DNA from: Gammaproteobacteria bacterium
Lineage (GTDB): Bacteria; Pseudomonadota; Gammaproteobacteria; G965277405
Assembly: GCA_965277405.1 (NCBI GenBank)
Contig: OZ255726.1
Coordinates: forward strand, 928,001-992,000
Reading direction: 5' to 3'
Length of the DNA: 64,000 nt
The notes below the pieces were generated by a model that did not search any database, was not told the DNA's origin, and was given only the letters and a program-made list of their open reading frames with translations. Numbering within the stretch: the first letter of the stretch is position 1; each line of letters starts with the position of its first letter. Made by a program: the position numbers and the translations under genes. This document shows positions 9,192-24,067 of this stretch, one piece after another.

Positions 9192-9474
9192 GGAAGCTAT
9201 GATTAAGTCCATGACGGGCGAGACGGAGAAAAAACGCTGATGATAACTAGACGCAGTGCGCAGATAATACTGGTGGTATTATCAAGTGCTGCAACGACGT
9301 TAGCGCAGCGTTTTTTTCCGTCCTTCTGTTGAATATATGATGGTTTGCTGCAGCGGTACTTGCTGTGTTGCATCCCTTGGCGTATATGCTACGGCATGCG
9401 CCTGCGGAATGCGCCTTGCAATCATCAGCAATTGCAGGCAAACTCGCTCCATCAGCGACTTAATCAGAGCTTCC
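9192..9474 (+). mobile_element. MITE copy between the RBS and ATG of the ATP-grasp gene
   Basis: GGAAGCTATGATTAAGTC...GACTTAATCAGAGCTTCC with perfect CTAT duplication (9188-9191, 9475-9478). Confidence 0.93.
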
Positions 9475-9476
9475 CT

Positions 9477-19534: not shown

Positions 19535-20340
19535 GTGGAACTGATAAAGAAATGATCTTAGGTCTTTGGCAAGGCGTCGGTATCCGCGGTGAGGTGACGT
19601 CGAACATCGAAGACATTCAGCGAATAGCAATACAGGCAGCTGCTGAGGGTGTCGAACTTCTGGTTTTTCCCGAATGTTTTTTGACGGGATACTTAGCGTC
19701 GGCAGATGTAGCAGAGATCGCAGCGCAAGTAGATGGTCTTGTCTTTGATAAATTGGAGAGCATCGCGGATGAATACAACATCGCCTTGGTTGTTGGCTCC
19801 TATGAAGTCTCCACGCGAGGGGTCTATAATGCGGCCTTTGTCGTGCATCCTGGAATAGGATTAGTCGGAATTTATCGAAAACGCATGCTCTATGGCGCTT
19901 GGGAAAAGCGGACATTCCAGCAAGGCACCGAACCGCTGACCTTCAAATGGAAGGGACTAACAGTCGGGGTGTTGATCTGCTTTGATATTGAGTTTCCAGA
20001 GCGCACCAGAGAATTGGCAAACTTAGGAGTCGATTTGATTGTTACACCAACCGCACTGATGGAGCCGTTTGCTAAAATTTCATCGCTTGTTGTCCCAACG
20101 CGGGCGCTGGAAAACGGTATATATGTAGGCTACGCAAACCGGATAGATCGTGAAGAAGAATTTGAATATGTCGGTGGTAGTTGTATTATTGCCCCAGATG
20201 GGACGGATATGGCGCGGGCGGAAAAAGCAACAGCAACGCTGCTGACTGCTAGTATATCAACACAATACCGCGATTTGATAACATCAAAAATCAACTACCT
20301 TGTTGAAGTTTCTCGCGAAAATACGCATGTCATTGATTGA
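19531..20340 (+). CDS. Carbon-nitrogen hydrolase (DavA-like omega-amidase)
   Basis: Triad motifs VFPECFLTGY, YRK, ICFDIEFPE; TRALEN. Confidence 0.88.
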   Translation: MSGTDKEMILGLWQGVGIRGEVTSNIEDIQRIAIQAAAEGVELLVFPECFLTGYLASADVAEIAAQVDGLVFDKLESIADEYNIALVVGSYEVSTRGVYNAAFVVHPGIGLVGIYRKRMLYGAWEKRTFQQGTEPLTFKWKGLTVGVLICFDIEFPERTRELANLGVDLIVTPTALMEPFAKISSLVVPTRALENGIYVGYANRIDREEEFEYVGGSCIIAPDGTDMARAEKATATLLTASISTQYRDLITSKINYLVEVSRENTHVID

Positions 20341-20522
20341 GTATCCCCGCACAATGAAAAATGCAACATCAGGAATGGTTGCTTATCTTTAACAACGAGG
20401 ATATGCGCTAACAACGAGGATATGCGCTAAGCATAAAATTCCACATTCTCCAGCAAGGACTCCTACTGCGGCTGTAGCCCTTAAGATCTGCACCAGTTGA
20501 GAACACCTATCCGGCAACAATA

Positions 20523-20596
20523 ACAACCTTTAATTAGAGGTTGTCAAGCAACAATTATTGCGAGTTTTCTTCTTGTAACTCCTCTAATTTTAGAGG
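20523..20596. promoter_or_regulatory. Pair of palindromic operator-like sites
   Basis: ACAACCTTTAATTAGAGGTTGT and CCTCTAATTTTAGAGG upstream of an extended -10 (TGATATAAT, about 20639). Confidence 0.4.
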
Positions 20597-20713
20597 GGAT
20601 ATCATGATGCCGAAAAAATAAAACATCTATGTAAATTGTGATATAATGTAAACTAAGTGTGTTGGATGTACTGGATGCATAGATGCATCCAAACGAACAA
20701 CAAGGAGAAAAAT

Positions 20714-22297
20714 ATGACCAAAATGCTTAAGCAATCTCTGATTACGTCGATAATTAGCAAGACGGGGCAACAAGATGATAATAATAGCCGCAGTACGCAG
20801 ACAATACTGCTGGGTATTATCGAGTACTTTAACGACCTTCGCGCAGCGCTGTTTGCCGCCGATGTGTTGAAGATACTGTTGGTTTACGGTACATGTTGTG
20901 TTACTCGCTTGGCGGATATGCTCAGGTCTGCGGTTTGCGCCTTGCAATCATCAGCAATTGCCATCAAGCTCGCCAATCAGCGCCTTAATCAGAGCTTCCT
21001 TAGAATACTAGCTATTTCTGCCACAGTATTTGTCACATTGCCGGTTTTGGCAAAGGACACTCCTGTTACTTGGTGGTATGAACGCGCCACCCCTGAGCAA
21101 CAAGCTGCACTGTCGGAACTGATGATTGATAAATTCAATGCTGCTGACAATGGCAACACTCTCACAATCGACTACCGTGGCAACGAATTGGATAAGCAGC
21201 TGCGGATTGCACTTTTATCAGGAACTGGTCCGGATGTAGTCAATACACCTGGTCCGTCTTTCGTGGCAACAATGGCACGCGCTGGGCAATTGCTGGCACT
21301 CGATGATATCGCTGTTAAAAAAGGCTGGAACGACCGAATCCTGCCATTCTTCATGGATTTGGGTCGGTTCGATGGCCATCTGTATGCGCTGCCAAAAACC
21401 TATGAAACACTTGGATTGTTCTACAACAAAAAGGTCATGGCAGAGAATGGCTGGGCGGTACCTACAACTCTTGCAGAACTGACGACAGTTGCCGATGCAA
21501 TGCTGTCTAAAAACATTATCCCATTTGGGTCTGGCAACTCGGACTGGCGTCCAGCCAACGAATTTCAGGTATCAATTGCTCTCAACTCCATCGCTGGTCC
21601 AGACAACATGCAAAAAGCGCTAACAGGTGAGTTGCCGTGGACGGCAGAACCTTTTGCCAAAGCCATCAATACACTAGATAGCTGGTGGAAAAAAGGCTAT
21701 TTTGGACCTGACTACTTCTCACTCACCGGTGATCAGGTCATGGCTAACCTGGCTAATGGTTCTGCTGCGATGGTGCCAACCGGCACATGGAACTTCCAAC
21801 TAGTCCCAGAATATTTTGGCGATCAACTTGACAACATTGGTTTTGTAGGTTTTCCCAGCGGCGAAGGAGTGGCATACCCAATATACGCACTTGGCATTGG
21901 CTCCACACTCTCTATCGCGGCAAAAGCCAACAACCCTGAAGGTGCTGCCAACGTCATTGATTTTATCTTTAGTAAAGGTTTCTATCAGGACATGAACAGT
22001 GTTTGGCAAGGTGAGTGGAACATGCCGCTGCGTGACCTCAGCAACGTAAAACTGAGCGAAGATATCATCCCGCTGTATACGGAATCTATGGCTGCCTTGG
22101 CTGAATCCGTGAATCAAAGTCAATACGGTTACACTACTTGGACGTTCTTCCCTCCTGCAAGCAACTCTTACATTGTGAGTGGCATCGAGCAAGTTTGGCT
22201 GGATGATATTACTACCGAAGAATTCCTCGCAGAACTTGATGATATTTTCAAGCAGGAATTGGCTGAAGGCAAAGTCGCGGATATCCCTGCGCGTTAA
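20714..22297 (+). CDS. Carbohydrate-type ABC substrate-binding protein with a 91-codon in-frame MITE insertion
   Basis: SD AAGGAG, ATG 20714; GPDVV, LYALP, GLFYNK, VPTTLAEL, GTW motifs. Confidence 0.9.
   Translation: MTKMLKQSLITSIISKTGQQDDNNSRSTQTILLGIIEYFNDLRAALFAADVLKILLVYGTCCVTRLADMLRSAVCALQSSAIAIKLANQRLNQSFLRILAISATVFVTLPVLAKDTPVTWWYERATPEQQAALSELMIDKFNAADNGNTLTIDYRGNELDKQLRIALLSGTGPDVVNTPGPSFVATMARAGQLLALDDIAVKKGWNDRILPFFMDLGRFDGHLYALPKTYETLGLFYNKKVMAENGWAVPTTLAELTTVADAMLSKNIIPFGSGNSDWRPANEFQVSIALNSIAGPDNMQKALTGELPWTAEPFAKAINTLDSWWKKGYFGPDYFSLTGDQVMANLANGSAAMVPTGTWNFQLVPEYFGDQLDNIGFVGFPSGEGVAYPIYALGIGSTLSIAAKANNPEGAANVIDFIFSKGFYQDMNSVWQGEWNMPLRDLSNVKLSEDIIPLYTESMAALAESVNQSQYGYTTWTFFPPASNSYIVSGIEQVWLDDITTEEFLAELDDIFKQELAEGKVADIPAR
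20731..20999 (+). mobile_element. Diverged MITE copy, in frame within the signal peptide
   Basis: TTAA-GCAATCTCTGATTACGTC ... GCCTTGCAATCATCAGCAATTGCCATCAA ... CTTAATCAGAGCTTCC-TTAG; 269+4 = 273 bp. Confidence 0.9.
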
Positions 22298-22391
22298 ATC
22301 CTGACTAACAACAATGGTGTGCCAGGCTAGATTATGCCGCAACTATGTTAAAAAATAGTTGAAAAATAGTTAAAAAATACTGAAATTGCCG

Positions 22392-23237
22392 ATGCACCGT
22401 TTGTTTGTTATACCGACATTGCTCATCAGCGTTTCTATCATCATGTTACCAGCAATATTAACCATATTGCTTGCATTCTTAAGATGGGATGGGGTTTCTG
22501 TCCCGCAGTTTATTGGCCTAGAAAATTTTGAGAAACTTTGGAATGATCGTATTTTTTGGCGCTCACTCGCAAATAACTTAAAATGGACAGTTCTGTTTAT
22601 GACGTTTCCCATCATAATCGGCCTTGTCGCTGCCTCTTTGTTGTTGATTGTGAAACGAGGTAAGACATTCTTTCAGGTTATCTACTTTTTGCCAGTCATC
22701 ATTGCGTCCGTGATTACGGCGCGTATTTGGCAAGGTATGATCTACAACCCGCAAACGGGCATTGTGGCATTGCTGAATCGATATGGGTTTGAGTTGAACG
22801 ATCCGCTCGCCCGCATGTCTTCCGCGCTCTACGGCGTGGCTGTGGTTGATCTTTGGCACTGGTGGGGGTTCATTGCGATGATTTTCTTTGCGTCCCTGCG
22901 GCAGGTTCCGACCGAACAGATCGAAGCTGCGCGGATTGATGGGGCTAGCTACTTGCAACAAATGCGCTGGGTGCTGATCCCCGCAATCAAACCAACGATC
23001 ACACTGATGATGATCATGACCGTGATCTGGTCGTTCCTTGTCTTCGATTTCATCTACGTTATGACCCAAGGCGGTCCTGCGTTTTCTAGCGAAGTTCTTT
23101 CAACAATGTCCTATCGCGAGGCGTTTTACGAACTCAAGGTCGGGCGTGCTGCTGCGACTGCGCTAGTAATCAGCCTGTGCGGGGTCGCAGCATCGTTTTT
23201 CTATATCAGACTTCAAGCCAAAGAGGTCGAAGAATGA
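22392..23237 (+). CDS. Carbohydrate ABC permease (UgpA/MalF-like)
   Basis: FIGLENF, EAARIDGA, TQGGP. Confidence 0.9.
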   Translation: MHRLFVIPTLLISVSIIMLPAILTILLAFLRWDGVSVPQFIGLENFEKLWNDRIFWRSLANNLKWTVLFMTFPIIIGLVAASLLLIVKRGKTFFQVIYFLPVIIASVITARIWQGMIYNPQTGIVALLNRYGFELNDPLARMSSALYGVAVVDLWHWWGFIAMIFFASLRQVPTEQIEAARIDGASYLQQMRWVLIPAIKPTITLMMIMTVIWSFLVFDFIYVMTQGGPAFSSEVLSTMSYREAFYELKVGRAAATALVISLCGVAASFFYIRLQAKEVEE

Positions 23238-24067
23238 ATCCCATCGAAAGCCGCTTAACGATGATAATTACCTACATGATATTAAGCATCGCGGCGTTTA
23301 CAGCATTGTTCCCGATAGCATTGATGGTGCTGAACTCACTAAAAACTAACCCAGAAATCACGCTTAATCCGTTGTCATTTCCGGTCACCGCCGCATGGGA
23401 AAACTTCACACGCGCTTGGAAAGGAGCGAATTTCTCGCAAACGTTCTTTAACTCGGCATTACTCGTGTTCATTACGATTGTTTTGGTGATCTCAACGGGG
23501 TCGCTGACAGCATATGTTCTGGCACGCAAAAAAATCAAATCATGGAAAATTCTGAGCGCCTACCTGCTGGCCACGACAACGGCTCCTATTCAGCTATTTA
23601 TGTTCCCGCTGTATTTTGGGTTCGCTAAGCTGGGTATAATCAACAACGTGTTCGCGGTTGCGGTAATTTATTGCGCACTGTATAGCCCGTTTTCAATCAT
23701 GCTTTTGCGGACGTATTTTCTGGCTGTGCCGGTAGAGCTAGAAGATGCAGCTCTCATTGACGGAGCAACTCCATGGCAGGTTTTCTACCGGGTTTATTTG
23801 CCGCTTGTCTGGCCAGGGATACTGACTGTGACGCTGATCATCGGGCTATACACATGGAATGAATTCCTGATCGCAACAACGTTCCTACAAGCATTAGAAT
23901 CAAGAACTGCGGTTGTGTCTTACTTCATGCTCTCCGGGCAATTCCTAAGCGATTGGGGTGAATTAATGGCTGGTGCTCTTTTGGTCGTACTGCCAATCGT
24001 CGTTTTGTTTATCATTCTGCAAAAACGCTTTATCGAAGGCATCACTAGCGGATCCGTTAAGGGCTAA
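23234..24067 (+). CDS. Carbohydrate ABC permease (UgpE/MalG-like)
   Basis: ELEDAALIDGA, WNEF, QKRFIEGITSGSVKG. Confidence 0.9.
   Translation: MNPIESRLTMIITYMILSIAAFTALFPIALMVLNSLKTNPEITLNPLSFPVTAAWENFTRAWKGANFSQTFFNSALLVFITIVLVISTGSLTAYVLARKKIKSWKILSAYLLATTTAPIQLFMFPLYFGFAKLGIINNVFAVAVIYCALYSPFSIMLLRTYFLAVPVELEDAALIDGATPWQVFYRVYLPLVWPGILTVTLIIGLYTWNEFLIATTFLQALESRTAVVSYFMLSGQFLSDWGELMAGALLVVLPIVVLFIILQKRFIEGITSGSVKG

Follow-up and report, generated by a model that had tools for sequence, protein, structure and literature searches.

A diverged IS5-derived miniature element read through in frame within the signal peptide of a solute-binding protein gene

Results

A miniature transposable element separates codons 5 and 6 of a binding-protein gene

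We analyzed a 64,000-nucleotide stretch of DNA (the window; positions 928001-992000 of a single-contig, 2.17-Mb gammaproteobacterial genome with 44.8% G+C) in which the first gene of an ATP-binding cassette (ABC) transporter operon, encoding a solute-binding protein, carries a copy of a MITE (miniature inverted-repeat transposable element) inside its signal peptide. The insertion separates codons 5 and 6, and, in the sequence and in the list of open reading frames (ORFs), the frame opened by the ATG at 20714 is closed by a stop codon at 22295-22297. The features of the gene, in window coordinates, are as follows.

20714-22297, plus strand: solute-binding protein gene of a carbohydrate-type ABC transporter; ORF of 527 codons plus stop, insert included
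20702-20707, plus strand: Shine-Dalgarno sequence AAGGAG of the ancestral start, seven bases before the ATG at 20714
20727-20730, plus strand: left target-site copy TTAA, one change from TTAG
20731-20999 (269 bp), plus strand: diverged IS5-derived MITE copy, read through in frame, as aligned to the 285-bp family consensus
20731-20746, plus strand: left terminal inverted repeat, degenerate, GCAATCTCTGATTACG; 4 of 16 positions mismatch the consensus end GGAAGCTCTGATTAAG
20837-20902, plus strand: insert-encoded hydrophobic stretch LRAALFAADVLKILLVYGTCCV, residues 42-63; Kyte-Doolittle 15-residue means 1.4-1.96
20918-20920, plus strand: in-frame internal ATG, residue 69, candidate alternative start; upstream duplex -4.2 kcal/mol
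20984-20999, plus strand: right terminal inverted repeat, perfect, CTTAATCAGAGCTTCC, read as ..LNQSF
21000-21003, plus strand: right target-site copy TTAG
21002-21052, plus strand: what is left of the ancestral signal peptide, R-ILAISATVFVTLPVLA; in the alignment, the leaders of homologues end in ..PVLA-ED or ..PALA-ED
21053-22294, plus strand: mature binding protein, intact and constrained, with no gaps or stops relative to homologues

The MITE copy and one 4-bp target copy together measure 273 bp, or 91 codons, and contain no stop. When both were excised in silico, the leader MTKML(R/K)ILAISATVFVTLPVLA-KD was restored, and this leader aligns with homologue leaders of 26-28 residues. Thus, two claims of a preliminary description of this DNA, namely that the insert is a stop-free block of 91 codons and that removing 20731-20999 with one target copy yields a Sec-like leader, hold. 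Judged by eye, the restored leader and the distal part of the present one (K85, R90 and R97, then ILAISATVFVTLPVLA-KD) both show a basic n-region, an h-region and small residues at -3 and -1, and a signal-peptidase site is predicted after Ala113 (21052|21053).

The same description had called for a comparison with orthologues lacking the insert. In this comparison, the 91-residue block after residue 5 was absent from all 12 aligned homologues (61-86% identical), and the nearest proteins, P0002 and P0003 (86-87% identical), have no insert. A metagenome scan returned 22 loci, the best of them 79% identical, and the insert was absent from all nine that were inspected (66-79% identical). Eight of these nine orthologous loci have a short leader of 26-28 residues directly after a GGAG-type ribosome site, which stands at the same distance from the start as AAGGAG does here; in the ninth, L044, the likely start lies further inside a long open frame. 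Because the orthologous loci begin at the homologous ribosome site and ATG, the ATG at 20714 is the ancestral start. In the 40 nearest genomes, all of which share only the class with this one, the gene was found in none at E<=1e-20.

The inserted copy belongs to an abundant family. Its consensus is 285 bp long with perfect 16-bp inverted ends GGAAGCTCTGATTAAG, and as a query it detected 296 loci genome-wide, 170 full-length and 126 partial. The same ends bound the resident insertion sequence (IS) elements of 1.22-1.26 kb (nine inspected); the 315-residue product of one of them matches the IS5-family transposase model NF033581 with 329 bits (cut-off 140) as well as the Pfam families DDE_Tnp_1 and DUF772. 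The degenerate left end of the copy studied here, GCAATCTCTGATTACG, has two mismatches to the GGAATCTCTGATTAAG variant found on resident IS copies. Identical flanks were seen at 66 of the 170 full copies, and in 50 of these the 4-bp target duplication is TTAG/CTAA. With matching inverted repeats, a 4-bp duplication of the YTAR type and small, multicopy units that carry no transposase, the family is an IS5-family-derived MITE, as the preliminary description had proposed. It shares its 16-bp ends and TTAG/CTAA duplications with IS5-group elements and their MITE derivatives but differs from them in having no name, an internal 285-bp sequence of its own and a very stable predicted fold. The fold predicted for the 285-nt consensus is a rod of very high stability (-133.7 kcal/mol) that contains internal hairpins, and the consensus carries 3-7 stops in every one of the six frames. 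An Rfam search of the window, in which only a tRNA and the signal recognition particle RNA reached gathering scores, placed no intron-like or other family on the element. Altogether, these results indicate that a non-autonomous IS5-type MITE inserted long ago into a TTAG spanning codons 5 and 6.

The open frame depends on indels that are specific to this copy

A consensus copy placed at this site and read from the native ATG would encode MTKMLKEALIKSMMGETEKKR, followed by TGA TGA TAA and two further stops (five in all), and the 289 bp that it adds would cause a +1 frameshift. By comparison, the resident copy shows 219 matches, 49 mismatches and 18 gap columns relative to the consensus, and the gaps fall into seven indels of -1, -1, +1, -7, -1, -6 and -1 bases, which total -16 and leave 269 bp. 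The consensus letters with only these seven indels give a fully open, in-frame reading; the substitutions of the copy without its indels do not open the frame. Inspection showed that the first three indels (-1, -1, +1) shift the entry frame into the frame that is continuous with the gene, past TGA-TGA-TAA and then TAG, and that the remaining four total -15 and compensate one another. In the consensus, the last 75 codons of the gene-continuous frame are already open.

How often such a frame would arise by chance was also estimated. In a neutral simulation of consensus decay (49 substitutions and 7 indels of empirical sizes; 200,000 trials), 0.72% of the products were open and in frame, and with the observed indel sizes at random places this rose to 2.7%. 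Random sets of 49 substitutions on the open version left it stop-free in 18.6% of cases. The preliminary description had put the chance of an open frame below 1%, had noted that near-consensus copies run into TGA-TGA-TAA, and had described this copy as rich in substitutions and indels with its frame kept and its family hairpin lost; all of these points were reproduced by the consensus reading, the alignment, the simulation and the fold prediction. The 6-base deletion takes out the GCUACGGC hairpin region, and the copy is predicted to fold at -80.3 kcal/mol, with only four of the 170 copies less stable.

That the loss of structure is a special adaptation was rejected. The 18 copies below 80% identity average -0.34 kcal/mol per nt, compared with -0.30 for this copy, and the loss is not special because diverged copies fold less well in general.

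The copy is 81.7% identical to the consensus; among the 143 copies aligned, whose median is 93.5%, only one scores lower. No other genomic copy is more than 78% identical to it. Several low-identity copies are variants with 9-bp repeat expansions. When compared by eye with the 30 most diverged copies, its changes were private, and no source or sibling copy was seen. We infer that most of its divergence is best placed after the insertion.

The mature protein is constrained and the inserted peptide is not

Relative to orthologous DNA, the mature part of the gene is free of gaps over 410 codons, with proportions of non-synonymous and synonymous differences (pN and pS) of 0.14-0.156 and 0.73-0.74, the latter being saturated. 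The mature part is on average 72.9% identical to ten outgroup proteins, as against 74.6% and 72.8% for the two nearest insert-free relatives, and it carries five private changes at columns that are otherwise invariant, where the 13 sequences range from 0 to 18. No indel was found in the 1,245 bp of the mature part, versus seven in 285 bp of the insert; had the mature part drifted neutrally over the same time, about 30 would be expected. Because the mature part shows no acceleration and no indels and is strongly constrained, these sequence comparisons support the view that the gene stayed under purifying selection after the insertion. An AlphaFold model built from a 42-sequence alignment was consistent in its outline: residues 116-527 have block means of the predicted local distance difference test (pLDDT) near 90 (about 80-98), and residues 1-113 form low-confidence helices with block means of 46-67.

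The insert behaves otherwise. Compared with the consensus carrying the same indels, it has 11 synonymous and 38 non-synonymous changes, giving a ratio of non-synonymous to synonymous rates (dN/dS) of 1.03 for a single sequence and its divergence from the consensus only. This value falls within the null distribution obtained by random placement without new stops (median 0.93, 95% range 0.50-1.91). There is a sign of constraint on the frame only and not on the peptide, and the purifying selection on amino acids that marks a domesticated transposon coding sequence was not found.

Discussion

A proposed tolerated passenger in a cleaved leader

On the evidence of the sequence comparisons, we hold with moderate confidence that frame-preserving selection keeps a 113-residue leader that would be removed by signal peptidase, and that the insert within it is a tolerated passenger. 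The course of events may have been as follows. If the copy was consensus-like on arrival, translation from the native start would have stopped after 21 codons, and only weak internal initiation would have remained, as the 3' three quarters of the element are open and have an ATG 26 codons before the junction. We propose that small indels that steered the frame around the stops were retained because the gene was still needed, until the strong native start was rejoined. The present precursor would then have a 113-residue leader composed of a 96-residue cytoplasmic N-terminal extension and the original basic, hydrophobic and VLA-K signal. The Sec machinery would recognise this distal signal, and signal peptidase I would remove leader and insert together, so that the mature protein would therefore be unchanged. 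The 91 extra residues would be a neutrally drifting passenger, the sole constraint on which is that no stop arises and the frame is kept. The insert may thus be described as a tolerated exonised MITE and probably not as a domesticated one. More tentatively, we suggest that translation from the old start could yield the full 527-residue precursor, which would be exported and then cut behind Ala113, its frame having been rebuilt indel by indel through a stop-laden transposon.

The preliminary description went further and suggested that selection had made the MITE coding and apparently domesticated. What stands of this is that the frame was created by indels in a gene under purifying selection; the domestication does not, as the peptide appears neutral.

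Several observations weigh against the explanation that we favor. The frame constraint is seen in one sequence, since no relative with the insert was found, and the count of seven indels comes from one MAFFT alignment. Part of the divergence could predate the insertion. A Sec leader of 113 residues is about twice the longest class that we found documented (>50 residues), and the second hydrophobic helix, at residues 42-63, might disturb targeting. In the genome-wide check of copies that had been proposed at the outset, stop-free frames numbered 9 of 1,020 copy-frames, about 1%, as expected of random sequence. When all 170 copies were placed in silico at this site and orientation, three were open and in frame, namely the resident copy and two identical others (2 of 169) that represent one duplicated locus; element ends in this placement were extrapolated from BLAST coordinates, and the length classes of some copies may be off. 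Finally, with some 2-5 gene-interrupting trials, an open copy would be expected by chance, family-wise, with a probability of a few per cent, and as this estimate is post hoc, it makes the argument suggestive, not conclusive.

Choice of the start codon

The alternative that survives best is that the protein begins at the ATG at 20918, or is made from a transcript with its 5' end inside the MITE, and that the frame is open as far back as the old ATG by coincidence; we consider this possible, though rather unlikely. Translation from this in-frame codon, residue 69, which has a weak GGCGG upstream, would give a 45-residue basic leader, MLRSAVCALQSSAIAIKLANQRLNQSFLR-ILAIS.., whose basic n-region adjoins the native h-region. 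In addition, the consensus is open for 75 codons in the gene frame and has an in-frame ATG, which makes internal initiation the likeliest route of early survival after the insertion, and one promoter-like site on the plus strand lies inside the element (20754-20782, 9 of 12 matches). The chance that the 68 codons upstream are open, about 1-3%, is not negligible.

The strength of the candidate starts argues in the other direction. Among ten in-frame ATG, GTG and TTG codons between 20714 and 21060, the native start pairs best with the CCUCC tail (-8.5 kcal/mol), and both it and its ribosome site are intact, whereas at 20918 the duplex of -4.2 kcal/mol falls, within the in-gene background, between the 5th percentile (-5.4) and the 25th (-3.4). 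On an mRNA that includes 20714, ribosomes would make the long form in any case. The promoter scan found four sites, compared with 2.0 +/- 1.6 in shuffles, and terminator counts were also near the shuffle expectation. Moreover, the indels upstream of 20918 sum to exactly the shift that joins the native frame. The consensus's own in-frame ATG was lost from this copy through the 6-base deletion, a loss that would have been easier to tolerate with the native start already rejoined.

The composition of the long leader bears on whether a precursor from the native start could be exported. The stretch at residues 42-63 is moderately hydrophobic and interrupted by Asp and Lys, and the native h-region, with a Kyte-Doolittle mean of 2.37, lies above it. 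Residues 64-97, which precede the h-region, include five basic residues, K85, R90 and R97 among them, and one acidic residue. By the positive-inside rule, a basic flank of the h-region keeps the downstream domain outside, and the basic residues at 64-97 should still place the mature domain there.

Decay, domestication and assembly

Another explanation is that the gene is an early pseudogene, in which the insertion ended export or expression of the protein and the copy, already diverged and open when it landed, has had little time to change since. We regard this as unlikely. MITE copies are many in this genome, and at least one clearly breaks a gene (a frame of 567 + 1,323 codons with RCC1 and fn3 domains, at G000:C1:1481805). 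In all, flanking frames rejoin on removal of the element at five copies, one of which clearly splits a gene; the others comprise a possible split of a T2SS-F gene, a copy (URO-D) that simply lies upstream of a complete gene, and two ambiguous cases. A 96-residue extension with a hydrophobic helix of its own might block targeting, and equally diverged old copies exist as conceivable sources (18 of 170 below 80% BLAST identity). Against this stand the lack of any candidate source, as all other copies are at most 78% identical to this one and none is closer to it than the consensus; the mutation that one target copy has already acquired (TTAA versus TTAG); the mature region, which has no acceleration or indel and whose five private changes are within the range of its relatives; and the two downstream permease genes, both of which are intact. 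Pseudogenisation had been named in the preliminary description as an outcome that would overturn its reading, and, as far as the mature part of the gene goes, no stops, indels or acceleration point to it.

That the MITE peptide has been truly domesticated and now has its own function (anchoring in the membrane, regulation as a leader or action as a peptide freed by cleavage, for instance) is very improbable. In favor of it are the open frame, for which the chance is about 0.7%, and the long helices predicted for the insert, of which one is hydrophobic. Its dN/dS is neutral, however, AlphaFold confidence is low throughout residues 1-113, and this is the sole such copy of 170. A search for a related peptide in other proteins of more than 160 residues returned, from 177 candidates, only the query's own protein, which is weak evidence.

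An assembly artefact, in which a copy of an abundant repeat was misplaced into the gene, is hardly credible: short-read contigs do break in the conserved 3' part of the element (20930-21003), but the copy is unique in sequence, and both junctions and the unique diverged part are confirmed because contigs of three DNA runs (from one study, possibly including the source sample) match there with 0 differences, those of X1 covering 20000-20957 and 20938-22400, those of X2 20000-20959 and 20976-22400, and X3 20681-20831. The misassembly that had also been named as a possible refutation was thus looked for at the junctions and not seen.

Relation to known in-frame repeats and long leaders

The proposed frame-preserving retention of a tolerated MITE in a cleaved leader has partial counterparts in the literature. 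According to a 2024 review, in-frame fusions caused by intragenic MITEs are "not unusual", and the Rickettsia palindromic elements (RPEs; Ogata et al. 2000, 2002), of which R. conorii has 44 insertions with nearly half in ORFs, are the extreme case (PMC10969869). The same review describes in-frame fusions or terminal ORF extensions produced by intragenic ERIC elements and Anabaena MITEs, and the Coxiella elements QMITE1/2 are reported to overlap many ORFs (PMC5896051). For autotransporters, two-part Sec leaders have been described in which a conserved N-terminal extension some 25 residues long precedes a complete signal, giving functional leaders of just over 50 residues (PMC2805444).

Like the RPEs, the element studied here is a short palindromic mobile repeat that would be translated in frame within an otherwise functional, conserved host gene. 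As those accounts present them, however, RPE families carry a conserved ORF that is in frame at many sites and their segments lie in mature proteins, whereas the present consensus has five stops and the wrong length, and its segment lies in a leader predicted to be cleaved. With stops in all six frames of the consensus and one of 170 full copies inside an ORF of at least 200 codons, the family does not behave as an RPE-like protein-coding repeat and shows no general route of that kind to new peptides: the copy is a singleton. The ERIC, Anabaena and QMITE cases are similar in that MITEs make in-frame fusions or terminal extensions, and this genome has four partial copies at ORF ends; the cases in those sources differ in being mostly C-terminal overlaps or hypothetical proteins. 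The autotransporter leaders are similar in that an extension precedes a complete signal peptide and, in the cases described, the proteins are still exported and cleaved. The extension here differs from them in being 96 residues long, which exceeds any that we found documented, and in being unconserved, transposon-derived and attached to a periplasmic binding protein. A full-text literature search, which was not exhaustive and did not extend to supplementary tables, brought up no paper on a signal peptide interrupted by a MITE. Fusions of MITEs with genes in frame are thus not new in themselves; this one differs in that the family is non-coding, the frame comes from copy-specific indels and the site is a leader predicted to be cleaved.

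In the classic in-frame cases, the repeat already carries an open frame. Here, a structured, stop-containing MITE was seemingly made readable after insertion by a few indels, in a part of the protein that is discarded. If the long precursor is made, exported and cleaved as suggested, its leader would be one of the longest bacterial Sec leaders, and with each exported molecule a 113-residue, freely evolving, transposon-born peptide would be released at the membrane, a starting point for a de novo peptide gene. Confirmation of the long precursor would show the amount of N-terminal ballast that the Sec pathway can tolerate and the way in which mobile DNA without coding function can come to be translated at next to no cost. 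Otherwise, the locus would be an ordinary gene with a start inside a transposon, or a decaying gene.

The host gene, its operon and other copies of the element

The binding protein matches the Pfam profiles SBP_bac_1 (1.6e-29; 104 bits, cut-off 26; residues 129-421) and SBP_bac_8 (1.6e-25) and aligns end to end with 41 homologues. With a full-length SBP_bac_1 protein and adjoining permeases, it belongs among the Family-1 extracellular solute-binding proteins. An NCBIfam scan of the protein gave no equivalog at its cut-off that would assign a substrate. The permease genes, both intact, are located 3' of it:

22386-23237, plus strand: ABC permease gene (Pfam BPD_transp_1, 5.5e-11)
23231-24067, plus strand: ABC permease gene (Pfam BPD_transp_1, 6.4e-14)

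Of 8,000 candidates scored in a protein database search, 433 proteins were returned. Among those listed, the homologues are nearly all 426-445 residues long, with up to 87% identity among those of 434-445 residues, the exceptions in length being a 755-residue permease fusion and a 344-residue fragment, and coverage of the query is at most 84% in each of the 119 other proteins listed. The closest named homologues, again among those listed, are from Hyphomicrobiales, Devosia, Rhizobium and other alphaproteobacteria. The genome is gammaproteobacterial, and the operon (20714-24067) may have been acquired horizontally.

The two identical copies that also read open at the insertion site, G000:C1:129436-129726 and 131107-131397, lie 1,671 bp apart and are 68% identical to the consensus. 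A stop-free frame of 111 codons runs across each of them, and they probably arose by tandem duplication. The copy that splits a very large frame into 567 and 1,323 codons (L056 1702-2019; G000:C1:1481805-1482122) is 77% identical to the consensus; the parts rejoin in frame without the element and 4 bp, and RCC1-like and fn3 domains are found on both sides. Four partial end fragments of 36-89 bp lie, free of stops, within the opening or closing codons of ORFs that are 226-475 codons long, and may be terminal extensions of these genes:

G000:C1:299519-299554, partial MITE fragment at an ORF end
G000:C1:867340-867396, partial MITE fragment at an ORF end
G000:C1:132713-132801, partial MITE fragment at an ORF end
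G000:C1:2133559-2133600, partial MITE fragment at an ORF end

Subfamilies of the MITE are set apart by a 9-bp unit (GGGTCTTGT-like), in which they differ by 1-4 tandem copies, and by internal blocks of alternative sequence. The resident IS copies mostly have broken transposase frames, with a frame of more than 300 codons in one of the nine inspected, and two full-length IS5-type copies (1,229 and 1,220 bp) stand head to tail, 4 bp apart, at G000:C1:858840-861292. Elsewhere in the window, at 9193-9475, a near-consensus MITE copy with a duplicated CTAT target separates a GGAGG ribosome site from the ATG of the gene that comes next, and a 421-codon open frame abuts its right end.

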